Positions 8,317 to 59,757 of a stretch of 64,000 nt of DNA are shown one piece after another (the first letter of the stretch is position 1; each line of letters begins with the position of its first letter). Source of the stretch: a virus. The notes below the pieces were generated by a model, which was not told the origin of the DNA, ran no database searches, and saw only the letters and a program-made list of their open reading frames with translations. The position numbers and the translations under genes were made by a program. The stretch lies in the IMG/VR virus record IMGVR_UViG_3300027659_000010. The stretch is one strand, 5' to 3'.

Positions 8317-10787
8317 GGTAATTTTTCTCCACGTTGCGGGAATGCAAGGTATTTATCCTCTATTTCACCGTCTATGATATCTATGACGTAGCGATCTGCT
8401 ACGAAATCGATGGTTTTAAAATCAAACTCGCTGGCACGAATTCTAGCTAAAACATTAACTGCTGTGCCGGGATTGCAATAGCATAAGGGCAGAGCTTTGA
8501 CATAGCCAGTTTCGTATGATTCTTGATCCTGTATACTGCGCATCCATAGAGGCAGGAATTCGCGATCATTTAGACCAGTTTCAGCCATACGCCTCCGCAT
8601 GTTTTTAATACTGTTTGGAAATATTCTTTGATGGTCACTGTCGCTGACTAATGGGATATCACTGTCGATTTTTATGCTGTCGTAGCTGATCAGCACTGGA
8701 CTGTTAATATTGTTGGGTAGATTTACCGTGCCACTGATACTGCTGCCATTTTTTTCCAAAGGATCAACGATGTTGACATATATGACTTCGTATATGGTTT
8801 CCTGGGTCTGAGAGTTTTTGGCTTTGGCTATTCCTAAATCGCCAAACTGTAATCTCTTGCGATAATGATTTCTACTCATGCTCTGCACATAGCGTACAGC
8901 TTCTACGCTTTCTATGCCCGCATAGACCAAGACCTGTAATGCGGTCTGCACACCAAAGTTCGGATCGCCATATCTATACAGATCACTGGGTTGAAAAATA
9001 GTAGCGTCTGTGATAAAATTATACCAAGCCAATCTTTTGGATTTTGTTTGGAATGCCTTGACATACAGATTAGCGAATGTGTTGGAATTTTCTGCTGTCA
9101 CAGTGATATTGAATGTTCGATTAAGGGTAGCGAAATTTACACTGTCTCTAGCTCGTATAGTAAATGTGAATTTTTTATCGAATTTAGTAATACCGCCATC
9201 AAACGTGGCAGTAAAATCTCTGCTTAGACTGGAACTGTCCTCTGCAGGCGCTAGACTGTCCGAGACTTCGTAGAATCTAGTGAGCCCCGGGCCCGCATCG
9301 TCTGCGAATTGTTTGACCTTGCCTTGGATATCTCCTGTGGGCACAAAAGTCAGTCCCGGCGGCAGTGTGCCTGATACAAATTCATAACCTATCCTACCAC
9401 CATACAACAGTGTTTCTGCTTGAACATATTTCTGACTGGGTTGATTAGGTTTGATAGTGCCGAGATCGCTGTCTGTGATCCACTCCACCGCGCTGTCAAT
9501 TTCGCCTACTATTTGCACTGTGAACTGTTTATCAGCGGTTGAAACTCCCGCGATCCAGAATTCTAAATCTGTAGGCAGTCGATTGCGATGTGCTATGGTA
9601 CAGATGTAGATCAGTCCTAGATATAGCACAGCATCATAGGCTAGATAGTTAGTGCTGTTATTCCATATGCCTTTGAGAGTATAGTTGGCATATGCCAAAC
9701 TGCTGGGGAAATTTGCAGCCCGCATAGTGAACATATAGGTACGTGAAACTCTGGCCTGGTAAGGCACACGTCCCGCTATTTCACCAGTGATACTGTCTAG
9801 CGCCATGCCTGGGGGAAGTTGACTAGGCGAAAGATCTGCATTAGTAGGTAGTAGGAAATAAGTTATAGTGCCAGTCAATGACGGTGGATCATATACATCT
9901 AGATAGATAGTAACGTAGTTGTTGGCCCGGAATCTACCAAGATTGGATTCAGTGATCCATATAGGTGTTCGATCGCTGTTGGCATCTGAGGTAAACAGAT
10001 TGGTATCAACCTGCATGATTGAATTATCTGCCTGTAGGAATTCTTCAGTAACCACATATATCTTAAACAATCTGGTTTCTGTATGCACACCGTCTGTGAC
10101 AGCTACTATGAATGTGTAGATTCTGCTGAGTCTTCTAGGTGATCGGCTGGGCTCGTTGTAGTCAAAATACTGTGAGTCATAGACAAAGGTATCAAACCCG
10201 TTGGATCTAGCCTCAACGAAATCTAAAGGTGTCACATCCAGGGGCGCAGTATCGTAGCCTCCAGATGCGTCTCTGAGATATTCCAACGCAAATATAGGGT
10301 CAGTGAATCCTGAGATTACTCCGTCTCTACTCAGAGTCAATCCCGGAGGCAGCAGTCCGCCATTGGGCACCAGATAAAATTCCAATTTATCTCCAGCGAT
10401 GAGATCGGTATCACGGGCTTCTAGTTGGAAGTTGACCTGAGCGTTGTCTAACACAAAGTATGCTTCAGCAGGCCCTATGTTAAGGAAGCCTTCTTTGGTG
10501 AGCCATATTGGGGCATCTGAACCATCCACTGACAGGCTAAAGGTACGATCTTCTATGTCTACACCATCAAAAGCACGGATCACAAATCTGCTGGTGGTGT
10601 AGACCTTGACCTCAGTAGGCGAACCTTTAATAGCATTATTGCTGAGTCTAAGACCTCTAGGCAAGGTGCCTGCCAACAGGGTCATTGTGACTGTGCCTAG
10701 GTTGCTGTTGGCTGACAAAGGCAAATCGACTATGATACGTTCAGTGAGTATGCCTAGGCTGCCAGCTGGGGTGATCCAAGTGATCAT
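8313..10787 (-). CDS. large Ig-like (He_PIG) repeat structural protein, putative baseplate wedge
   Basis: Repeated LP(P/R)G(L/M).L...G.I.G motifs and F.IRA.D strands; 824 aa. Confidence 0.65.
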   Translation of the reverse strand: MITWITPAGSLGILTERIIVDLPLSANSNLGTVTMTLLAGTLPRGLRLSNNAIKGSPTEVKVYTTSRFVIRAFDGVDIEDRTFSLSVDGSDAPIWLTKEGFLNIGPAEAYFVLDNAQVNFQLEARDTDLIAGDKLEFYLVPNGGLLPPGLTLSRDGVISGFTDPIFALEYLRDASGGYDTAPLDVTPLDFVEARSNGFDTFVYDSQYFDYNEPSRSPRRLSRIYTFIVAVTDGVHTETRLFKIYVVTEEFLQADNSIMQVDTNLFTSDANSDRTPIWITESNLGRFRANNYVTIYLDVYDPPSLTGTITYFLLPTNADLSPSQLPPGMALDSITGEIAGRVPYQARVSRTYMFTMRAANFPSSLAYANYTLKGIWNNSTNYLAYDAVLYLGLIYICTIAHRNRLPTDLEFWIAGVSTADKQFTVQIVGEIDSAVEWITDSDLGTIKPNQPSQKYVQAETLLYGGRIGYEFVSGTLPPGLTFVPTGDIQGKVKQFADDAGPGLTRFYEVSDSLAPAEDSSSLSRDFTATFDGGITKFDKKFTFTIRARDSVNFATLNRTFNITVTAENSNTFANLYVKAFQTKSKRLAWYNFITDATIFQPSDLYRYGDPNFGVQTALQVLVYAGIESVEAVRYVQSMSRNHYRKRLQFGDLGIAKAKNSQTQETIYEVIYVNIVDPLEKNGSSISGTVNLPNNINSPVLISYDSIKIDSDIPLVSDSDHQRIFPNSIKNMRRRMAETGLNDREFLPLWMRSIQDQESYETGYVKALPLCYCNPGTAVNVLARIRASEFDFKTIDFVADRYVIDIIDGEIEDKYLAFPQRGEKLP

Positions 10788-36485: not shown

Positions 36486-36974
36486 TTATGACTCTTTCAA
36501 TATTTTCATGATCTTTTCTTTTTCTAAAAGATCTCGTTCGAGTTCCACGTATTGGTTACGCAGTTCTTTTAACTGCTCCCAACGTGATTCTAATTCTGTA
36601 TTAGGTTTCAGTATGGCCAGTCGTTGTTCAATCTTTTCTATAGCTTGGGTTAGACTCTTACCACCTACAACAATATCAGCACCTTCTTTCATTGTCAATC
36701 CGTCTGCGTCAATAAGCACCGTGGAGGGGCTAGTACTCATGGTATAACCACCGGTGCCGGTTGTTGTTGTATATGTGTAGGGGGAGGTAATACTACCTGC
36801 GGTGAACATACTGCTATCAAGGGTGATGGTGTCTGTGCCCATGCTGGCTCCTATGTTATAGGTATAGTTAGCAGCACCATATCCACCAAGATCAATAGTG
36901 GTACAATCACCACTACTGACCGCGATGGTATCGTCGATGCTTACATTACGCTGACTTAGCTTCTTTGCGGGCAT
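36486..36974 (-). CDS. hypothetical protein
   Basis: Thr/Ser-rich N-terminus, C-terminal coiled coil (IEQRLAIL.P). Confidence 0.7.
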   Translation of the reverse strand: MPAKKLSQRNVSIDDTIAVSSGDCTTIDLGGYGAANYTYNIGASMGTDTITLDSSMFTAGSITSPYTYTTTTGTGGYTMSTSPSTVLIDADGLTMKEGADIVVGGKSLTQAIEKIEQRLAILKPNTELESRWEQLKELRNQYVELERDLLEKEKIMKILKES

Positions 36975-37140
36975 TTTTTTCTTCGGTGATTTCTGTGCGA
37001 CGTGCCTTGACCAACTTGCCTACTTCTTGCAGAGCTTTACGAGCGCGGGTTCCTGCAGCATTGTTTCCTGCTGCGAATTTAGCGTCCTCTGAGAGAAATG
37101 TATCTAGTGCTGCTTTGAGTTGTTCTACTGTGTTTGACAT
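36946..37140 (-). CDS. histone H1-like Hc1-family small basic protein
   Basis: KF..GN.AAGTRARKALQE...RR.EI.EEKN motif; AAGGA SD. Confidence 0.7.
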   Translation of the reverse strand: MSNTVEQLKAALDTFLSEDAKFAAGNNAAGTRARKALQEVGKLVKARRTEITEEKNARKEAKSA

Positions 37141-37183
37141 ATCTGTTTCCTTATCGTTATGTGAATATACTTATTCCGGTCAA

Positions 37184-37294
37184 TGGTGTGGTCGGTAGGT
37201 TTCGAACCTACAAAGGCTACGAACTACGTCAGCGCCCCGTCCCCATTCTGGACTATGGGTCCAGCGGGAGCTTTGCCAATTTGCTCACGACCAC
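37184..37294 (-). tRNA. atypical 111-nt tRNA-like RNA (type II/Leu-like body, expanded anticodon arm)
   Basis: Acceptor GTGGTCG/CGACCAC-A-CCA; D arm AGC-AAATTGGCAAA-GCT; T arm GTAGG-TTCGAAA-CCTAC; long variable arm; 33-nt anticodon region. Confidence 0.75.
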
Positions 37295-37300
37295 AAGTAT

Positions 37301-37329
37301 AGTATATAACCTTATTTTTTGAAATGCAA
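37301..37329 (-). promoter_or_regulatory. sigma70-type promoter of the tRNA-like RNA
   Basis: TTGCAT-17nt-TATACT; predicted +1 at ~37294, the 5' G of the acceptor stem. Confidence 0.6.
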
Positions 37330-37358: not shown

Positions 37359-38342
37359 ATGATCATAGACTTTCAAAAGATTCCGTTTAACGAGATTGTG
37401 CGTTTTGGACAGAGGACCATGCTAGACCGTCCACTGTTTTCTGTGAGTTGGATACTGGGCAGATTCTGTAACTACAACTGTTCCTATTGTTGGCCCTATG
37501 CTAGATCAGATCGAATCGATCATCAGAGTTTAGAAACCTACACCTCGACTATTGACGAAATCAAACGCCAGGCCAAACTAAATGGCTTCGATCAATTCCA
37601 TTGGAGTTTTTCAGGAGGGGAACCCACAGCCTACAAACAGTTGAATGAATTAGTCAAGCACCTACAACAGGACACAGTGTCTCCATACCAAAGCATACAT
37701 ATGACCACTAATCTTTCACCGGGATCAAAATGGTGGAACACCTGGTGCTCTAACACAGACATGCTGCAACGTCGGAGTATTACCGCATCATTTCACGCCG
37801 AGCATGCTCGAGAACAAGAGTTTGGTGATAAGTGTCTTCAGTTGATTTATGAACGGGTGCATGTGACTGTGAATCAAGTAATGGTCCCTGATCAGTTTTG
37901 GGACCTGTATGCTCGCTGTGAAAGGTTTCATCAACGAGGTATAAACATCACGCTGAAACCACAGAGTGATCCTACTGCAAGTCATATTGTCAGTGGCTAC
38001 ACAGATGAAATGGTCCAGGCCATGCAGACAGGATTTACACAGAAGGCACAAGGAGAAGATGTTTATCAAATAGCACTGTATGAACAAAATGGCACTGAAC
38101 ATTTATTTGATCAGGCCGAACGATTCAATGCATTCGGATTTAACAAATTTCAAGGTTGGAGTTGCAATAGTGGCTATCAAAGTGTTATAATAAGAGGTAA
38201 TGAGGTCAAGAGAAGTTACAGCTGTCACGATCTGCCACTAGGAAATCTTCAAGATGGTTTTACATTATTCAATGAACCGACTAAATGTATTAGTTCTAGC
38301 TGTGTGAGTTCTGCAGATTCAAAAATACCAAAATGCAAATAA
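37359..38342 (+). CDS. radical SAM protein with C-terminal Cys cluster
   Basis: CNYNCSYC, SGGEPT, TTN; WSCNSG..SC..C...C C-terminus. Confidence 0.9.
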   Translation: MIIDFQKIPFNEIVRFGQRTMLDRPLFSVSWILGRFCNYNCSYCWPYARSDRIDHQSLETYTSTIDEIKRQAKLNGFDQFHWSFSGGEPTAYKQLNELVKHLQQDTVSPYQSIHMTTNLSPGSKWWNTWCSNTDMLQRRSITASFHAEHAREQEFGDKCLQLIYERVHVTVNQVMVPDQFWDLYARCERFHQRGINITLKPQSDPTASHIVSGYTDEMVQAMQTGFTQKAQGEDVYQIALYEQNGTEHLFDQAERFNAFGFNKFQGWSCNSGYQSVIIRGNEVKRSYSCHDLPLGNLQDGFTLFNEPTKCISSSCVSSADSKIPKCK

Positions 38343-38923
38343 ACACCGAACATCTGCATCATTGGATGCAGGCCATACGACAGAGTTCCGATCCTATGCG
38401 AACCATGGATGCGTTTTGGAGCGGCCAATTAAAAAGCAAAGAATGGTTGATTACTAATCTAAGACATCACGTGAAAAAATTCGTTACCATAGACATACAC
38501 GGCGGGTGGGTCGGAGTATTAGCCAGCATGTTGTTTCAAAGTGATGTGCCTGTACTCAACATTCGTAGCATTGATATAGATCCCGCATGCGAACCTATTG
38601 CTGTAAACATGAACAAGATAGAAGAGATGGTTGGCAAGTTCTGTGCGGTTACCGCAGACATGTGCGAGATTCGAAGCGACGCAGATGTTGTTATCAATAC
38701 CAGTTGTGAGCATGTCACACAAGAACAGTATGATTTATGGTTAAGCAGAATGCCGCAAAACAGTTTATTAGTCTTGCAAAGTAATAACTATGATATTCCA
38801 GAGCATGTTCGTATCGCGCAGTCGCTAGAAGAATTTCAAACACAATGCGGCATTAATAAAATATGGGCCGGATCATTAGAACTGCCGTTGTACACACGAT
38901 ATATGATCATAGGTAAGAAATAG
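38333..38923 (+). CDS. class I SAM-dependent methyltransferase-like protein
   Basis: GGWVG Gly motif, SIDID, VINTSCEH, LQSNNY. Confidence 0.6.
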   Translation: MQINTEHLHHWMQAIRQSSDPMRTMDAFWSGQLKSKEWLITNLRHHVKKFVTIDIHGGWVGVLASMLFQSDVPVLNIRSIDIDPACEPIAVNMNKIEEMVGKFCAVTADMCEIRSDADVVINTSCEHVTQEQYDLWLSRMPQNSLLVLQSNNYDIPEHVRIAQSLEEFQTQCGINKIWAGSLELPLYTRYMIIGKK

Positions 38924-39888
38924 TGTATTCATTAACAGACATTAGAACAGTTCATTTAGAAGTTACTAGTAGATGCCAAGCTAGTTGTCCTATGTGCGCC
39001 CGTAATATCCAAGGTGGAATCGATAATCCGTTCATGACGGTTATAGAAATTACATTAGATCAGCTTAAAGAATGGTTTTCAGTTGAGTTTATTAGACAGT
39101 TAGATCGGTTGTTTATGTGCGGCAACTTAGGGGATCCTATCATTGCCAAGGACACTTTAAAGATCTTTGAATATATTCGAGAAGTTAATCCTAACATAAT
39201 ATTAAGCATGAATACAAACGGTTCTGCAAGAAATCTGCAGTTCTGGAAAAAACTTGCTGAAGCAAGAGTTCATGTACGATTTGGTATTGATGGACTAATA
39301 GATACTCACAGTCTGTATCGTATAGGCACGGACTGGGTGAAAATAATAGATAATGCCAAAAATTTTATAACGGCTGGGGGACATGCTACTTGGGACATGT
39401 TGGTGTTTGAGCATAACAAACATCAGGTTGAACTTTGTAAAGAGCTCAGTGAGTCTATAGGGTTTGAAAAGTTTGTGTCAAAGAATACTGCTAGATTTAG
39501 GGACAATTATCTTAATGTTTTAAACAAAGAAGGACAGACTACACATATATTATATCCCACCGATAGAAGCAAACAAATACCAGTAACCAAAAAATCTACA
39601 ACAATAAATTGTAAAGTACAAAAGGAAAGAAGCCTATATATTAGTGCAACAGGTACCGTAAGTCCTTGCTGCTGGTTAGATAATGAATGGCAATCTCCTA
39701 ATAATCCTAATCGTATTGATTACATGGATAAGATAGGAACTAGACTAAGTTTGTCTAAGAATACGTTAGAGGAAATCTTTGAACAAAACGTTTTCACGGC
39801 AATTGAAAACACGTGGGAATGCAATCCGTTAAAAGAATGTTCAAAACAGTGTGGCGAAACAGATCGATTCAACGAACAATTTAATTGA
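38923..39888 (+). CDS. radical SAM/SPASM-twitch protein
   Basis: CQASCPMC, GNLGDP, TNG; C...G.VSPCC...CSKQC. Confidence 0.9.
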   Translation: MYSLTDIRTVHLEVTSRCQASCPMCARNIQGGIDNPFMTVIEITLDQLKEWFSVEFIRQLDRLFMCGNLGDPIIAKDTLKIFEYIREVNPNIILSMNTNGSARNLQFWKKLAEARVHVRFGIDGLIDTHSLYRIGTDWVKIIDNAKNFITAGGHATWDMLVFEHNKHQVELCKELSESIGFEKFVSKNTARFRDNYLNVLNKEGQTTHILYPTDRSKQIPVTKKSTTINCKVQKERSLYISATGTVSPCCWLDNEWQSPNNPNRIDYMDKIGTRLSLSKNTLEEIFEQNVFTAIENTWECNPLKECSKQCGETDRFNEQFN

Positions 39889-39894
39889 GAATGA

Positions 39895-41292
39895 ATGAGT
39901 AATAAGATCAAACAGTGGCAGGACAAAATCGAAGCAGTGTCGGGTAGTCAGACTTTTTGTGTACTACCCTGGATACATTTTGCCACCAGACCAAATGGCG
40001 ATATGCGATTATGTTGTTCCGCTAATGCCAGCGGAGCAGGAGAAAACCACACAGTGGGACTGGTGAAGAACGAAAAAGGTCAACCAGCTAACTTTGGTCG
40101 AGAAACACCTATGAGTGCTTGGAACAATGAATACATGAAAGATGTACGATTAACTATGCTTGAAGGAAAGATACCTGCTAGTTGTAGTAAGTGCATTGCT
40201 GAAGAGTCACGCGGTGTTGCTAGCAAACGTATCTGGGAAACAGGTTCGTGGATGGAAGATGGCATCGATGTTGAAGAGCTTATTAAGCAAACAGCAGAAG
40301 ATGGAACTATTCCTGAACGTCTTGTTTACTTAGATTTACGCTTAGGCCATACCTGTAATCTCAAGTGCGTTATGTGTAGTCCGCATGACAGCAGCCAGTG
40401 GGTGGCGGATCATAAAAAGATATACCCGTTATTTCAGGCAAAGGAACTTAAGGAACAGATGTCATGGGATAGGAAAGATTTTAATAATAAGTGGCACGAG
40501 AATCCAGACTTTTGGAAAGAGATGTATGCACAGATTCCTAACCTAAAGCAGGTGTACTTCGCCGGCGGTGAACCATTAATGATACGCGAACATAAATGGT
40601 TCCTTGAAGAAATTATTCGTCAAGGCTATGCTGACAAAATTCTCATACGTTACAATACAAATGGATTACTTGTAGATGATGAAATTATCGAACTATGGAA
40701 GCAATTCAAAAAGGTCAAGGTCGGTTTTAGTATCGATGCTGTGGGTGACCGTAATTGGTATATACGCTATCCTAGCGATTGGGCTATTATCGAACATAAT
40801 CTTCACAAGCTAGATAACACTCCCGACAACATACAAGTTAGTATCGCCACTGCTATACAGATATTGAACATCAAACATTTAGCAGACTTCGCCAAGTGGA
40901 AGATTACACAAAACTTTAAGAAAGTAAATCTTGAAAATACAGTAGGCGGAATACAAGCCGGTGGCGGAATTATTAATATGCATCTGCTGTATATCCCAAC
41001 CTTCTTAAGTATTCGATTGCTACCTGCTGAAGATAAAGCAGAAGTTCGCAGAAACTTTGCAGAACTTGCTAATTGGTTGCATGAAAACTATAGACAAGAT
41101 GAAGATTTTTGGAAAAATAATCCTTACGGGTGGAAACGTTGGCAGGCTGTACTGGACTTCATGGATGCCGAAGATCATACAAATCAAATATCTGCTTTTA
41201 ATGAATATATTTCAAGGTTAGATAAACTACGTGGTACACGATTTAAACTAATATTTCCGGAGTTGTCGCATTTGGAATCGTATAATGCCTGA
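39895..41292 (+). CDS. radical SAM protein with N-terminal twitch/SPASM domain
   Basis: FCVLPW..LCC..CSKC; CNLKCVMC; FAGGEPLM; YNTNG. Confidence 0.9.
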   Translation: MSNKIKQWQDKIEAVSGSQTFCVLPWIHFATRPNGDMRLCCSANASGAGENHTVGLVKNEKGQPANFGRETPMSAWNNEYMKDVRLTMLEGKIPASCSKCIAEESRGVASKRIWETGSWMEDGIDVEELIKQTAEDGTIPERLVYLDLRLGHTCNLKCVMCSPHDSSQWVADHKKIYPLFQAKELKEQMSWDRKDFNNKWHENPDFWKEMYAQIPNLKQVYFAGGEPLMIREHKWFLEEIIRQGYADKILIRYNTNGLLVDDEIIELWKQFKKVKVGFSIDAVGDRNWYIRYPSDWAIIEHNLHKLDNTPDNIQVSIATAIQILNIKHLADFAKWKITQNFKKVNLENTVGGIQAGGGIINMHLLYIPTFLSIRLLPAEDKAEVRRNFAELANWLHENYRQDEDFWKNNPYGWKRWQAVLDFMDAEDHTNQISAFNEYISRLDKLRGTRFKLIFPELSHLESYNA

Positions 41293-42376
41293 CTTCAATA
41301 CGTTGTATCCCGTAAAAAAGATTTTTCAGGTAGCCTGGGAGTCTACCCTTAAATGTAATTTAGACTGTAGCTACTGCGGTGACGGACACGATAATTCACA
41401 AAAGCATCCTAGCCTAGAAGAAAGCCTTAAAACTGTGGATTTTATAATTGAATATCTCAATCTTCATATGTCTATAAAAAATAAAAACAATAAGTTTGCT
41501 AATTTAAATATACAAGGCGGAGAGAGTATATTCCATCCTAATATTTTAGAAATATTAGAATATGCGGATGCTAAAAAAAGCAAATATCAAGATTGGTATC
41601 TTAGTGTTTCCCTCATCACAAATGCTATTATAGGCATAAACCAGTGGAAAAAAATATCTAGATTAGTTGACTTTTTTACAGTAAGTTATCATCCCGAGAG
41701 TTTACCTAAACAACAAGAAATGTTTAGACAGAATATATTGCACCTTAAGCAGTCTAGCAAATCATTTCATGTAGCAGTATTAATGCATCCAAAGTATTGG
41801 GATAACTGTATCGAGATGATAGAATTTTGCAAACAGCATGGGATTAACGCACTGCCTAGACAAATAGATCATCCTTGGAGTGATTTTAGATTTAATTACG
41901 ATGAAGAACAAACACAGCTTCTAACAGGAGCAAAGAAGATATCAGTCGCTACTAAAGTTATTTCTTTTTTTAGAAACGGTATAAATCTATCTGCACAAGG
42001 TCGAGCCTGTTGTGGGGGCGAAAGCATGTGCACAGAGGAGGCCAACGATATTAGATATGTGAACGGAAATAATTTCAAAGGATGGCAATGTTCTGTAGAT
42101 AAATTTTTCTTATACATACGACAGACAACAGGTGAAATTTTTACCAACAAAGATTGCAGGATGAACTATGATAACAAAGTAGGGGTTATAGGATATTTAA
42201 AAACCAGTAATGAGCTACTCGATGCTGTAAAACATCAAATAGAAACAAATACATTGCCTACTATTACCTGTAAGAAATTTAGTTGTTGGTGTGGTCTATG
42301 TGCTCCTAAAGCTAGAACAACAGAATTATATAATGATATGATGGAAAGATATTCAAATGCTAACACAGGTAATTGA
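41285..42376 (+). CDS. radical SAM protein
   Basis: CNLDCSYC, GGE; GRACCGG; CWCGLCAPK. Confidence 0.9.
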   Translation: MPDFNTLYPVKKIFQVAWESTLKCNLDCSYCGDGHDNSQKHPSLEESLKTVDFIIEYLNLHMSIKNKNNKFANLNIQGGESIFHPNILEILEYADAKKSKYQDWYLSVSLITNAIIGINQWKKISRLVDFFTVSYHPESLPKQQEMFRQNILHLKQSSKSFHVAVLMHPKYWDNCIEMIEFCKQHGINALPRQIDHPWSDFRFNYDEEQTQLLTGAKKISVATKVISFFRNGINLSAQGRACCGGESMCTEEANDIRYVNGNNFKGWQCSVDKFFLYIRQTTGEIFTNKDCRMNYDNKVGVIGYLKTSNELLDAVKHQIETNTLPTITCKKFSCWCGLCAPKARTTELYNDMMERYSNANTGN

Positions 42377-43334
42377 AGGTCGCGATTCTAATGTTCTTAC
42401 CATAGAACTAATGCTAGGAAACTTATGTAACTACAAATGTTCATATTGCTTTCCTGGTAGCAACGAGGGCGATCACCTTTGGCCCGACACCGACACTCTT
42501 ATTAAGAATATTACCCATCTGTTTGAAACATACAAACAACATGGCAAGAATAAGTTTGAGTTGTACTTAGTAGGTGGTGAGCCAACCTTATGGAAAGACT
42601 TGTCTAAATTTTGCTGGTTTTTAAAAAATAACTATGACGTAGTCATTAGGTTATCTACTAACGGATACAAGAAAGCAGAATGGTGGAAATTAAATTCTCA
42701 ATTGTTTGATGCTGTCGAAATATCAGTTCATCACGAATATGCAAATCTCGATCACATTGTAAGTATATGCGATGCTTTATACTACGAGAAAACAAATCTA
42801 GTTGCCAATGTGTTAATGGATCCTGATTTTTTTGATAAGTGTATTTCTATTGTAGAATATATAAAGTCTAGTAAAAAAAGATGGCCTATAGTAGCTAAAT
42901 GGGTACACTTCGATGGTAGGTCTAAATACACAAAACAGCAAGCAGAGTATTTAGAAAAACCATTAAAGCGTTGGCCGAATTTGCTTTGGTGGTTTAAACT
43001 AAAATATCATGCCCGTTACAAAACATGGGTCATTGAAGATAATAAGAAAAAACTAGTTGCAGATAACTACTTGACTTTACAAGGCAAGAATTATTTTAAA
43101 GGTTGGAATTGTAATCTCGGAGTCGACCATTTACACATATCAATGTCAGGACTCATATCGGGCAACTGCGGACAACTGTTGTATGGTAAAACTTTTCATT
43201 ATAATTTATATCAGGATAGCTTTGCTATAAACTTTAATCCTACTATAAATTCTGTGACCTGTACAAAAGATATATGTAGTTGCGGTTTTGAAACAAATAT
43301 TAGTAAAGTTATACCGATAAAGGTAATTGACTAA
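42357..43334 (+). CDS. radical SAM protein
   Basis: CNYKCSYC, GGEPT, STNG; WNCNLG..CTKDICSC. Confidence 0.9.
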   Translation: MLTQVIEGRDSNVLTIELMLGNLCNYKCSYCFPGSNEGDHLWPDTDTLIKNITHLFETYKQHGKNKFELYLVGGEPTLWKDLSKFCWFLKNNYDVVIRLSTNGYKKAEWWKLNSQLFDAVEISVHHEYANLDHIVSICDALYYEKTNLVANVLMDPDFFDKCISIVEYIKSSKKRWPIVAKWVHFDGRSKYTKQQAEYLEKPLKRWPNLLWWFKLKYHARYKTWVIEDNKKKLVADNYLTLQGKNYFKGWNCNLGVDHLHISMSGLISGNCGQLLYGKTFHYNLYQDSFAINFNPTINSVTCTKDICSCGFETNISKVIPIKVID

Positions 43335-44406
43335 CATCATTCCATAGCTGTCTAAAGTCATCAAGATCTTTTGCCTTAGGAACACACATACCACAACCGC
43401 ATCGTTGATTAGGGCATACAATAGGTGCTATTGTTGTTTGCGATAGCATGGCACTCACATTATCAAGTATTAACTGTGTGTTAGATAAATTTCCAATCGG
43501 GCCTCTTCCTGTATGCGTTGCCTGACAAGTTTGGTGATGAAATACATCTCCGCCGTATTGATCTATGTGCAAGAAATACCAATTAACAGTACAGTGCCAA
43601 TCTTTAAACCAATTATTAACTAGTTTAACTTCCTGCCATTCGCCATCGACCTTACCCTGCGTACATCGTCCGCCACAGCAGGCCCTGCCTACATTTGTAC
43701 CTTCTTTGGCCATACTTGCTTTACTTGTTTGTCCCATCCAACTATAGAACCAGTCTTGTTGTGCTTCTGTATATTCGTGACTTGTGCGTCTGTTAGTGCC
43801 GTCTGCATCAATAAACCAACCCTTGCGCACAATGTTACCGTCGCCAATAGGCACAGGATTTACCTTGATTCCTTTTTCTTTTAGCATAGCACATATTAAA
43901 GTTGCCTGTTCAAAGTGATCACAATGCAACATTACATTAACTTGCAAACTCATACCTGCGGTGTGCAATGCTAGAATATTTTCAATTGTACGTTTGTTGA
44001 GAGGATCTTCAGCATGCCAACTAACGGTAGCATGAGAAAAATTATCTAGTATCCGTTGAGTAAATTTAGGACCCCATGTGCCGTTGGTAGTGAGACTTAA
44101 TCTAAATTTCTTTGTTTCTTTAATATAATCAACCAACGGCCAAAAGTCGGGATTAATTGTAGGCTCACCGCCAGTGAAATCTATGTTACTTATGGTCTGA
44201 TCGACACGTTTACTATTATATAAATCTGCATATTGATCTACAAAATTAAATGTTTTTTTTAATTCTTCTAGTTCGGGTAGTTTGCTGTAATTGTCATGCC
44301 TCGTACTTTCACAGTAGGTACAATCTAAATTGCATCTTCTTATGATATCCCAAGTGACCATTAATGGTTCGGGTCGGCTGAGTTTAATCGCGGTGGTTTG
44401 GATCAT
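43309..44406 (-). CDS. radical SAM protein (paralog of 41285-42376)
   Basis: CNLDCTYC, TGGEPT, TTNG; GRACCGG; CGCGMCVPK. Confidence 0.9.
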   Translation of the reverse strand: MIQTTAIKLSRPEPLMVTWDIIRRCNLDCTYCESTRHDNYSKLPELEELKKTFNFVDQYADLYNSKRVDQTISNIDFTGGEPTINPDFWPLVDYIKETKKFRLSLTTNGTWGPKFTQRILDNFSHATVSWHAEDPLNKRTIENILALHTAGMSLQVNVMLHCDHFEQATLICAMLKEKGIKVNPVPIGDGNIVRKGWFIDADGTNRRTSHEYTEAQQDWFYSWMGQTSKASMAKEGTNVGRACCGGRCTQGKVDGEWQEVKLVNNWFKDWHCTVNWYFLHIDQYGGDVFHHQTCQATHTGRGPIGNLSNTQLILDNVSAMLSQTTIAPIVCPNQRCGCGMCVPKAKDLDDFRQLWNDVSQLPLSV

Positions 44407-45289
44407 ATTTTGTTAATGGTATATCTGATGCACACGTGCAGAAATTGCGATCACAGGTCACTGGAGTAGTGGGAGCAATAAAGGTACCGGTATAGATGTT
44501 GCCGATGCTGCCTCCGACTCGACAGGTAGCACGATGAACTTCGCCGTCCCAGTTAATCATTAGACTTTCAAGGCCGGCGTTGCAAGACCATCCGTTGAAT
44601 TGATTTAGGTTATTTTTAATAATATCGTTGGCATGGATAATCTTTTCTTCATCGATTCTACAATTAGGCTTTGCAGTAGCATCGTGTTCTAAGATCCATT
44701 CTAGATCTGTTCCGTCATATTTAAGGTCATCAAAGACATTGTGGTCACCCTCGGTCCATCGAATTCTGCGGATAGCATATTTGATACCAATTTCATCAAA
44801 CTTTTTAACAACCAGTTTTACGTGATGAACATATTTGTGATGAGCCATGATATTAACAAAGAAATCTCGTTCTGTGTTGTCGTAGAATTTTAAAATAGTA
44901 TCAAACACTCTAGTCCAATCTTGCTCAAAGTGTAGACTAAAAACAATATGATTGAAAAATGTCTCGTGATCCAAATACCATCGATGACCTCTGGTTCCGT
45001 TGGTAGTTAAGTTGACCCAGAATATATCTTTGCGTTTAAAATACTCGAGAAGGGCTTCAATATCAGGATGAACACAAGGTTCACCTCCTGTTAGACTGAT
45101 GCGCAAAGGCTTACCTAGCCCACATAGTTTATCTACAGCGGCTTCTAGAATATTGATATCTGTATGAGGACTGAAATTGTCGTGTATGACAGATGGGCAA
45201 TAACTACAATCATAGTTACAACGCTTACCAAGATTCCATTCTACTTTGAGCTGATCTTGATGCGGCCAACAACTGGTTATTTTATACAT
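44384..45289 (-). CDS. radical SAM protein (paralog of 42357-43334)
   Basis: CNYDCSYC, TGGEP, TTNG; WSCNAG..CDRNFCTC; likely start ATG 45289 (track 45313). Confidence 0.9.
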   Translation of the reverse strand: MYKITSCWPHQDQLKVEWNLGKRCNYDCSYCPSVIHDNFSPHTDINILEAAVDKLCGLGKPLRISLTGGEPCVHPDIEALLEYFKRKDIFWVNLTTNGTRGHRWYLDHETFFNHIVFSLHFEQDWTRVFDTILKFYDNTERDFFVNIMAHHKYVHHVKLVVKKFDEIGIKYAIRRIRWTEGDHNVFDDLKYDGTDLEWILEHDATAKPNCRIDEEKIIHANDIIKNNLNQFNGWSCNAGLESLMINWDGEVHRATCRVGGSIGNIYTGTFIAPTTPVTCDRNFCTCASDIPLTKYDPNHRD

Positions 45290-46598
45290 ACGGTTTAAAT
45301 TCCGGTACAACATTTAACAAATTCTGACCACGAGTAGAGTCTAAAGCAAAATTAAAATCTAAAAAGTCTTGCCACAAATTATTTTGATCATTAGCTTGTA
45401 GATAATTAATGTTATCTTGTATTTGTTGGTGTGTAACTTTACCTAACAGCGGATTGTTTTTAATTGCATCCCAGTCGTCTATTTGTGATTTAACAGATAA
45501 TAACTTTGTGATTGCTAACACTTTTAAATCGTTAGGCAATACTTGTGCTGACAAGCAGTTAGGATAGCTAACACGATGACTGTAGAATACAATATCCATC
45601 TTGTTGATAAAATAATCAATACACTCTGCGGCTTGTAATATGTTACCTGCTTGCGCTGTAAATGCTCCAACGACTCTACTAACGTTGGGTATCTTTTTTA
45701 TTTCTTTAATATTTTCTTCAACTTGATTAAAGTCACCGTTACCACGTATGTAATTGTAAACATCGTGAATGCCGTCAATGCTGACATTAACGGCAACGCT
45801 TCTAAAATGAGGCCAGTAGTCATATATAGTTCTTCCTTTGCTGATTCCTAAGGTCGTGCCGTTAGTGGCATATTTGATTTCAATGTTCTTGCCATAAGGC
45901 TTGAGCATATCAAGTATTCGATAATGCTGCGGATCCATTAAGGGCTCACCACCAGCAAACTCCACACGTTTAAAATGAGGAATTAACTTTTCAAAACTTG
46001 CCCACCAGTTGTCTGTGTCATCAAACGGACCTATGTATTGGCCGGGTTTCTTGACCAGTCGTTCTACAGTTGATACAAGATAGTTGTTTTCTTTTTTATA
46101 AAAAGGAACAACCTTGTCCCAGTCTTGCCAACTAGTGCTGTCAAGCGGATTGCACATACGACATTTTAAATTACAAAGATTATTAAGTTTGATTTCCATT
46201 GTAGGAATTTCAAATGGCATTGTGAAATCGTGTCGCATATTACTAACAGCATTAGGATATAATGTAATACGTGATTCTGGAATAACTCCTGCAATGTGTC
46301 GCTGTCGTAAACTTTCAACACCCTGATCTTCTAAACTAAAACAAGGAGCACATTCTTTAGGGCGTTCTCCGATCAACACCTGTCTACGTATGCGAGTCAT
46401 TGTTTCACTGTTCCAATGATACTCTAATGGAGCATCTTGTATGAAACCAATGGGGTGGCTGCGACAACAAACTTTAACAGCGCCATCTTCTCTGGTAGCT
46501 AGACCTGTAAAAGGATGCATACAAAATGTTTTACTTTGACTTTTCAACTGCCCACTCCCTTTCTTTGCACCAGAAACAGTTACCACAGGTTGGTACAT
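45282..46598 (-). CDS. radical SAM protein with N-terminal twitch domain (paralog of 39895-41292)
   Basis: FCMHPF..VCC..CAPC; CNLKCRMC; FAGGEPLM; true start probably ~50 nt downstream of the track start. Confidence 0.9.
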   Translation of the reverse strand: MYQPVVTVSGAKKGSGQLKSQSKTFCMHPFTGLATREDGAVKVCCRSHPIGFIQDAPLEYHWNSETMTRIRRQVLIGERPKECAPCFSLEDQGVESLRQRHIAGVIPESRITLYPNAVSNMRHDFTMPFEIPTMEIKLNNLCNLKCRMCNPLDSTSWQDWDKVVPFYKKENNYLVSTVERLVKKPGQYIGPFDDTDNWWASFEKLIPHFKRVEFAGGEPLMDPQHYRILDMLKPYGKNIEIKYATNGTTLGISKGRTIYDYWPHFRSVAVNVSIDGIHDVYNYIRGNGDFNQVEENIKEIKKIPNVSRVVGAFTAQAGNILQAAECIDYFINKMDIVFYSHRVSYPNCLSAQVLPNDLKVLAITKLLSVKSQIDDWDAIKNNPLLGKVTHQQIQDNINYLQANDQNNLWQDFLDFNFALDSTRGQNLLNVVPEFKPYV

Positions 46599-54225: not shown

Positions 54226-54242
54226 TACTTATCTGATAAGTA
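54226..54242. promoter_or_regulatory. palindromic back-to-back late-type promoters
   Basis: TACTTATC-T-GATAAGTA perfect inverted repeat between divergent operons; TAAGTA on both strands. Confidence 0.55.
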
Positions 54243-59718: not shown

Positions 59719-59757
59719 ATAAGTAGTTATCTGCGTATTTAAAGAATAAGTAGTTAT

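Follow-up and report, generated by a model that had tools for sequence, protein, structure and literature searches.

We found that the window (the whole stretch of viral DNA analysed, 64,000 nt) carries on its minus strand, at 37294..37184, a gene for a 111-nt tRNA-like RNA with G1 at 37294 and A76 at 37184. The RNA has the acceptor end, D arm, T arm and long extra arm of a class II tRNA, while a plain hairpin occupies the place of the anticodon arm. That this RNA is real, selected and non-decoding we regard as nearly certain. For the data as a whole we favour, with modest confidence, a small RNA that descends from class II tRNA-Leu, is transcribed on its own and does not decode; the confidence is modest because the explanation includes steps that we infer.

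Structure of the RNA

The window RNA (37184..37294) scored 105.5 bits against the family covariance model R1; all the parts described below are on the minus strand. The acceptor stem is 7 bp long, with GUGGUCG (nt 1-7, 37288..37294) paired to CGACCAC (nt 101-107). The 3′ strand is followed by A73 (37187) and an encoded CCA (37184-37186), the whole 3′ part occupying 37184..37194. U8-G9 lie between the acceptor stem and the D stem. The D arm (nt 10-26, 37269..37285), AGC-A-AAUUGGCAAA-GCU, has a 3-bp AGC/GCU stem and GG in the loop; it is colinear with what we take to be the D arm of Escherichia coli tRNA-Leu.

The arm in place of the anticodon arm is 27 nt long (nt 27-53, 37242..37268). Its base helix, C27-C29/G51-G53, is separated by an internal loop (G30 opposite A48-U50) from an inner hairpin, CUGGA-CCCAUAG-UCCAG (nt 31-47, 37248..37264). 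The long extra (variable) arm (nt 57-82, 37213..37238) consists of a GGGGC/GCCUU base, an internal loop, a GAC/GUU helix and a GUA triloop; an NUA triloop is kept across the family. U83 (37212), the equivalent of U48 and invariant in the family, comes before the T arm (nt 84-100, 37195..37211), GUAGG-UUCGAAA-CCUAC. The original prediction, made from this sequence, had listed an acceptor stem with A73-CCA, a GG D loop, a TTCGAAA T arm and a long variable arm; all are present, and the helices covary.

Family members and their detection

We count at least 132 distinct variants of the family, spread over more than 230 phage contigs of IMG/VR. An exact 28-nt query (T arm and 3′ acceptor strand) matched 47 IMG/VR contigs, and three further pattern scans used a single anchor each (acceptor, T arm or D arm); the family counts are lower bounds. 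The 132 distinct sequences collected are 96-119 nt long. With a covariance model built from 56 variants, family members scored 65-121 bits and ordinary tRNAs at most 43 bits. The score next below the family came from a distinct 116-nt tRNA-like RNA on a 455-kb contig (L185:357-472), with 49.5 bits for the family model and 32.5 bits for the Rfam tRNA model; it has a sealed 'anticodon' helix of ~9 bp and a very long extra arm, and ARAGORN gave no call for it.

The family is carried by uncultured phages of jumbo size, ~350 kb as estimated from the CheckV completeness of five large contigs (31-80% complete). In each of the five, one copy of the RNA was found. One structural protein encoded in the window shares 36% identity with proteins of large myoviruses of the PA5oct type; four cultured relatives searched with the model (PA5oct, phiN3, BUCT-ZZ01 and vB_OspM_OC) gave scores at the level of ordinary tRNAs only (≤41 bits). 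Distant-mode blastn with three members as queries detected no family RNA among 50,697 cultured phage records, the matches being T-arm similarities to ordinary tRNAs only, e.g. tRNA-Tyr of Aeromonas phages. Among 185,579 species genomes, two pattern scans yielded either nothing or chance matches only. The family is absent from Rfam 15, and our literature search found no description of it.

ARAGORN called no tRNA anywhere in the 64-kb window. A 701-nt region searched against Rfam 15 gave no match at gathering scores, nor at E-values up to 10. Relatives scored 24-32 bits with the Rfam tRNA model (RF00005; gathering score 29), as compared with 57-71 bits for real tRNAs, and a few short-arm relatives were mis-called by ARAGORN as tRNA-Pro or tRNA-His. 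The consequence for annotation is that tRNA finders either miss the family RNA or give its short-arm members a wrong identity.

Partial copies were also seen. At L173:6074-6183 the 5′ acceptor strand and D arm of a family copy are replaced with unrelated sequence, which comes after a terminator-like hairpin (GGGCAC..GTGCCC, then a T run); this copy is probably a 5′-truncated relic. Four loci of identical sequence (L247, L249, L263 and L285) have an exact family-type D arm, GTGAGTGCAACTTGGCAGACCTCCC, then unrelated sequence, with no T arm and no acceptor 3′ strand after it. This element is a 5′ fragment or a recombination product.

Covariation and invariant positions

In an alignment of 100 distinct sequences 95.2% of cells were paired and 17 of the 26 pairs showed compensatory changes; the covariation score was 0.311, against a shuffled mean of 0.116 and 0.057 for the best slid control. 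The alignment of 67 distinct sequences, where the T stem was not fixed by the search pattern, had 95.4% of cells paired, 20 compensatory pairs of 26 and a covariation score of 0.442 (shuffled mean 0.165, best slid control 0.08). None of 500 shuffles matched the observed score in either alignment. In the 67-sequence alignment compensatory changes were seen in six of the seven acceptor pairs (the family-wide figure as well), three of five T-stem pairs, all three pairs at the base of the central arm, and four of five outer and all three inner pairs of the extra arm; over the different alignments the count for the outer helix is three to four of five.

The identity of certain nucleotides is kept throughout. 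Among 68 aligned members A73, C74 and C75 are invariant and A76 is present in 67; the sole exception, L262:4647-4746, encodes CCG at its 3′ end, not CCA. U8, A10, the U48 equivalent, U54, U55 and C56 are also invariant, and 67 of 68 members have A58. A73 stays fixed next to acceptor pairs 1-6 that are free to vary. In the D stem, A10-U and G11-C are invariant, and the third pair, Watson-Crick in the window RNA, is mismatched in most relatives. The D loop reads AA..GG-N-A-N-A in every aligned member, with one additional nucleotide in most relatives.

The arm replacing the anticodon arm

The central arm is 12-35 nt long among the 132 distinct members, and a 5-bp stem with a 7-nt loop, the canonical anticodon stem-loop, was found in none of them. 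The absence of a tRNA call by ARAGORN or Rfam agrees with this observation, and the original view that the RNA is not a normal decoder holds. The opposing case that had been named, homologs with an ordinary 17-nt arm, was looked for in the 132 relatives and did not occur: arms of 17 nt are found in six members, all of them 6-bp stems capped with UUCG or UUUG.

The tip of the arm is a tetraloop (GNRA, UNCG or CUUG) in 49 of the 132 members. We observed 4-bp stems with a CUUG loop, 6-bp stems with a UUCG loop, bulged helices of ~10 bp with a GNRA loop, and arms with an AGUA/GAA internal loop (loop E or sarcin-ricin type) under a UUCG or ACCCCC cap. In one large subgroup (L137:3031-3141, L184:6946-7062, L244, L245, L257 and similar loci) the AGUA/GAA loop lies between CUCC/GGAG-type helices. 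Judged by its sequence, the AGUA/GAA arm looks like a recognisable protein- or RNA-docking module placed on a tRNA body.

An outer stem CCCG/CGGG had been drawn for the window RNA. In the 21 sequences of the window subgroup this stem has zero covariation and five broken cells, and its second G run belongs to the base of the extra arm. C27-C29 pair instead with the first G run, G51-G53, the three pairs covarying across the family; the variants of this base helix among subgroups are CUCC/GGGG, UGCC/GGYG, CUC/GAG and UCCUCC/GGAGGG. G57-G59, together with G60 and C61, pair with G78-U82. A-U compensations in this extra-arm helix were seen within the window subgroup (L015, L162 and L200), and elsewhere in the family it reads GGGAC/GUUCU, GGAAC/GUUCU, GGUAUC/GAUACU or GGGUC/GACUU. 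The ARAGORN call of tRNA-Pro (anticodon GGG) for short-arm members was rejected, as the G residues read as an anticodon covary with the C-rich strand on the 5′ side (CUCC/GGGG, CUGCC/GGYG, CUC/GAG, CUG/CAG).

With a plain variable hairpin in the anticodon-arm position the RNA is unable to pair with a codon. As compensatory changes are present and no member has a canonical arm, we characterized the RNA as a selected non-decoding look-alike of tRNA and not as the product of a recent insertion.

Transcription

A sigma70-type promoter lies upstream of the RNA on the same strand (37301..37329), with the -35 box TTGCAT at 37324-37329, a 17-nt spacer and the -10 box TATACT at 37301-37306. The same layout (TTGnnn, 17-nt spacer, TATAAT or TATACT) is kept in 111 of 115 distinct upstream regions, in agreement with the promoter and the start at or next to G1 suggested originally. 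Since the -10 hexamer ends exactly 6 nt before nt 1, the transcript is expected to begin with G1, carry a 5′ triphosphate and require no cleavage by RNase P.

Downstream of the RNA gene no intrinsic terminator was found in the window; a T run directly after CCA is present in 39 of 128 distinct downstream regions. The spacer between the RNA and the next gene (37141..37183, minus strand) contains a short AT-rich inverted repeat with an ATAAGTA box at 37168-37174, followed by a ribosome-binding site. Most relatives have a (T)ATAAGTA box and an AT-rich inverted repeat ~10 nt past CCA, ahead of the ribosome-binding site of the gene for the Hc1-like protein, and the arms of the repeat appear, on a reading by eye and not by count, to covary. 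The window as a whole shows no enrichment of ATAAGTA, with 9 copies where 13 are expected; the box occurs also in other divergent intergenic regions, at 54226-54242 and 59719-59752. The element may serve the downstream genes as a phage-specific promoter, or it may be a processing hairpin.

Resemblance to tRNA-Leu and possible function

The Leu-like body noted at the outset was borne out: among ordinary tRNAs, tRNA-Leu has the top score with the family model, both in T4 (39 bits, Ser 26) and in most of the phage tRNA arrays that accompany the RNA (11 of 13 comparable arrays by our own tally). In E. coli and Aquifex the leucine identity set includes A73, U8:A14, A15-U48, G18G19, A20a and contacts of the D and T loops (PMC9976931; PMC2377443), with A73 as the discriminator rule for LeuRS (PMC9976931). 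The anticodon arm is dispensable for leucylation, and a minimal tRNA-Leu without the arm is still charged (PMC9976931; PMC2377443). The window RNA has the nucleotides for U8:A14, A15-U48, G18G19, A20a, G18-U55, G19-C56 and U54:A58 at the sequence level; the nucleotides of the tertiary core used by LeuRS are invariant or nearly so across the family, and the discriminator is A in all 68 members. The window RNA thus has the full E. coli LeuRS identity set, of which the anticodon is not a part. Points against charging are the mismatched third D-stem pair and the additional D-loop nucleotide of most relatives, and the extra arm: with 5 bp, an internal loop and 3-4 bp it exceeds in length that of known tRNA-Leu, and orientation of this arm matters for at least one LeuRS (PMC2377443).

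Leucylation is suggested by the invariance of LeuRS identity nucleotides together with the dispensability of the anticodon arm. For the RNA being leucylated in vivo we see the chances as evenly balanced. The rules are extrapolated from E. coli LeuRS to the host enzyme.

We propose that the RNA would fold into the L-shape of a tRNA, be released by host tRNA 3′-processing enzymes and probably be charged with leucine by host LeuRS, through A73 and the tertiary core. As it cannot pair with a codon, the RNA would act outside decoding, as a leucyl donor or carrier; alternatively, it could occupy LeuRS, EF-Tu or another tRNA-binding host factor. We consider it likely that the RNA is a trans-acting small RNA.

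An uncharged decoy or sponge is a possible explanation, though on the unlikely side. By mimicking the elbow and acceptor end, the RNA would tie up a host protein of tRNA-directed defence or regulation, such as a nuclease or nucleotidyltransferase whose target is the acceptor/CCA end or class II tRNAs, and charging would be dispensable. The use of tRNA genes by phages against defences that target tRNA is known. The conservation of L-shape determinants and CCA end in combination with a freely varying arm would fit such a role, as would the strong promoter of its own and the restriction of the family to phages in the pattern scans of species genomes. However, an invariant A73 beside a freely varying acceptor stem points to recognition of synthetase type, and the anticodon loop to be expected in a decoy for anticodon nucleases is missing from the family RNA.

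Genomic neighbourhood

The RNA is back-to-back with a radical SAM gene, as originally described; this gene (37359-38342) is divergent from the RNA and 64 nt away from it. The next gene after the RNA, on the same strand, is Hc1-like (36946-37140), followed by a gene for a 162-aa protein of no known family (36486-36974, minus strand) and then thyX. The common gene order among the 132 loci is radical SAM (minus), 196-aa gene (minus), RNA, Hc1, 162-aa gene, ThyX, and the synteny RNA > Hc1 > cluster 1 > ThyX is present in ~100 of them. Across the RNA gene the GC content drops from ~0.44 to ~0.37.

Distant members often keep the divergent pair of radical SAM and 196-aa genes, and their downstream genes differ. 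Adjacency to radical SAM is frequent and not obligatory; in several contigs the homologs are elsewhere or were not found. Some distant members are located inside tRNA arrays, 3 nt before tRNA-Ser (L167) or between tRNA-Arg and tRNA-Ser (L209). The RNA gene persists while the neighbouring proteins have diverged to 30-60% identity.

One could suppose that the RNA is a cis-acting 5′ module, i.e. a processing handle or stabiliser of the Hc1/162-aa protein/ThyX mRNA in the manner of 't-elements', the excised RNA being a by-product. The start predicted at nt 1 and the lack of a terminator before the co-oriented genes speak for such a module, and so does the synteny in ~100 of 132 loci. We find this explanation unlikely all the same: distant members keep the RNA with other downstream genes or inside tRNA arrays, the conserved spacer box may itself be a promoter for the downstream genes, and a processing handle needs neither an invariant A73 nor a core of LeuRS type.

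Pfam, PHROG and NCBIfam contain no family for the 162-aa protein, in which a variable N-terminal part rich in S, T and G precedes a conserved helical C-terminal segment (DIKIGGKSL..RL.IL.P.P). In many relatives the ORF called for this protein runs further upstream, with a lysine-rich start (MKSQKKR..) that overlaps the end of Hc1. The upstream protein of 196 aa likewise has no family; its one lead is a weak methyltransferase-like signal, seen only in the ESM Atlas. No link to tRNA biology was seen for either protein. The island at 37359-46598 contains, besides the gene for the 196-aa protein, several radical SAM paralogs, of which five ORFs at 37359-43334 match Pfam Radical_SAM and a twitch-domain type matches NF033640 (E = 3e-121).

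A more speculative reading, which we hold to be quite improbable, is that of a dedicated aminoacyl carrier: a tRNA withdrawn from translation and charged by host LeuRS, whose amino acid would be tailored or transferred by phage enzymes. The radical SAM and methyltransferase-like genes, divergent neighbours in most loci of both major subfamilies, could be the tailoring enzymes. If this reading were true, the RNA would play the part that an acyl carrier protein has in other pathways. Among known users of aminoacyl-tRNA, no homolog of Leu/Phe-transferase (Leu_Phe_trans), FemAB or cyclodipeptide synthase was found in the five large contigs (31-80% complete), a point against the favoured explanation; nor did these contigs show a CCA-adding enzyme (PolyA_pol) or a class Ia synthetase.

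Two contigs are worth describing for their tRNA content. A 14.5-kb contig (L146) has 36 tRNA genes, for every amino acid but tyrosine, with the family RNA at the edge of the array. Replacement of tRNA-Tyr by the family RNA was rejected, as L167 has both; the absence of tRNA-Tyr in L146 is probably a coincidence or due to the contig end. Another contig (L141:2039-2422 and 10182-10256) has a tmRNA gene and, among 15 tRNAs, an amber-suppressor-type tRNA with anticodon CTA, called tRNA-Pyl by ARAGORN.

Alternative folds of the central arm

The window RNA was originally described as having a 5-bp/7-nt hairpin that displays a CAU anticodon and a mutually exclusive fold that hides it. The CUGGA/UCCAG stem is real, with four of five pairs compensatory in the 21-sequence subgroup; its '7-nt loop' CCCAUAG may be a 5-nt loop closed by the invariant C36-G42 pair. 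The CAU reading was not supported: this loop, with C at position 33 instead of U and the consensus CYYAYAG, is limited to the subgroup of the window RNA, while other subgroups have GNRA, UUCG, CUUG, ACCCCC or further tips.

The hiding fold is competitive in silico. Under constrained folding the CCCAU/AUGGG fold of the window RNA has an energy of -42.0 kcal/mol, the fold supported by covariation -40.0 and the fold with the earlier-drawn outer stem -37.8, and the predicted minimum-energy structure uses the CCCAU/AUGGG helix. This helix has no compensatory pairs, its cells are paired in 87.6% of cases (shuffled mean 87.9%), and 10 of 21 close relatives do not keep its A-U pair. The bistability would thus be a computed property of one window sequence, not a conserved one.

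A switch that toggles display and hiding of CAU, a decoding tRNA of Met/Ile type whose arm is extended, or a tRNA interrupted by a short intron is, in our estimate, very improbable. The CCCAU/AUGGG fold within 2 kcal/mol of the alternatives, for the window sequence alone, can be counted in favour of a switch; against it are an alternative helix that pairs no better than shuffled columns and has no covariation, a loop confined to one subgroup with tetraloops in others, and C in place of U at position 33. As to the intron, also raised in the original prediction, cutting out the hairpin would restore no anticodon loop; what remains are the C-run and G-run strands, which covary with each other as a helix. 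A group I intron was rejected too, the insert of 6-29 nt being too short. A tRNA pseudogene in decay after a recent insertion, which the misses by ARAGORN and the Rfam tRNA model might suggest, is hardly conceivable with 132 distinct variants, compensatory changes in every helix, invariant identity nucleotides, a conserved promoter and a gene that outlasts the divergence of its neighbours.

Comparison with known systems

Codon usage and escape from anticodon nucleases are the usual explanations of why phages carry tRNA genes. In the present family, strong selection maintains a tRNA body that has lost its decoding part, which implies that the elbow, the acceptor end and probably the identity of a leucine acceptor are useful during infection. 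A large and sharply defined family makes a clean system for a non-decoding tRNA predicted to be chargeable, whether it is a donor, a sink for LeuRS or EF-Tu, or a decoy.

The nearest published analogues in kind are the T4 stable RNAs C and D (rnaC and rnaD; species 1 and 2), also tRNA-like RNAs of a phage located beside tRNA genes. They are 139 and 119 nt long, with an architecture unlike that of the family RNA and no meaningful similarity to it: rnaC scored 16.9 bits with the family model (E = 0.0024 in 7 kb) and rnaD gave no match.

YrlA and other bacterial Y RNAs are, like the family RNA, non-decoding mimics of the elbow that the D and T arms make in a tRNA. The Ro-binding helix of YrlA is made by the ends of the RNA, at the place of the anticodon stem, and the acceptor stem is closed, whereas the ends of the family RNA form a normal acceptor stem with ACCA. 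The Rfam search for YrlA gave no match for the window RNA or its relatives.

The tRNA-like domain of tmRNA is another tRNA mimic with a long helix for the anticodon arm, charged by a synthetase that ignores the anticodon; for the family RNA such charging is a prediction. In contrast to tmRNA, the family RNA is without G3-U70, reading frame, pseudoknots and the 360-nt body, and the weak tmRNA match of one relative (15.7 bits) compares with a gathering score of 47.

With class II tRNA-Leu the family RNA shares the 7/5 acceptor/T branch, A73-CCA, the long extra arm, the colinear D loop AAUUGGCAAA and the nucleotides U8, A14, A15-U48, G18G19 and A20a. It differs from tRNA-Leu by a variable hairpin of 12-35 nt instead of the anticodon stem-loop, by a longer extra arm with an internal loop, and by the predicted start of transcription at nt 1.
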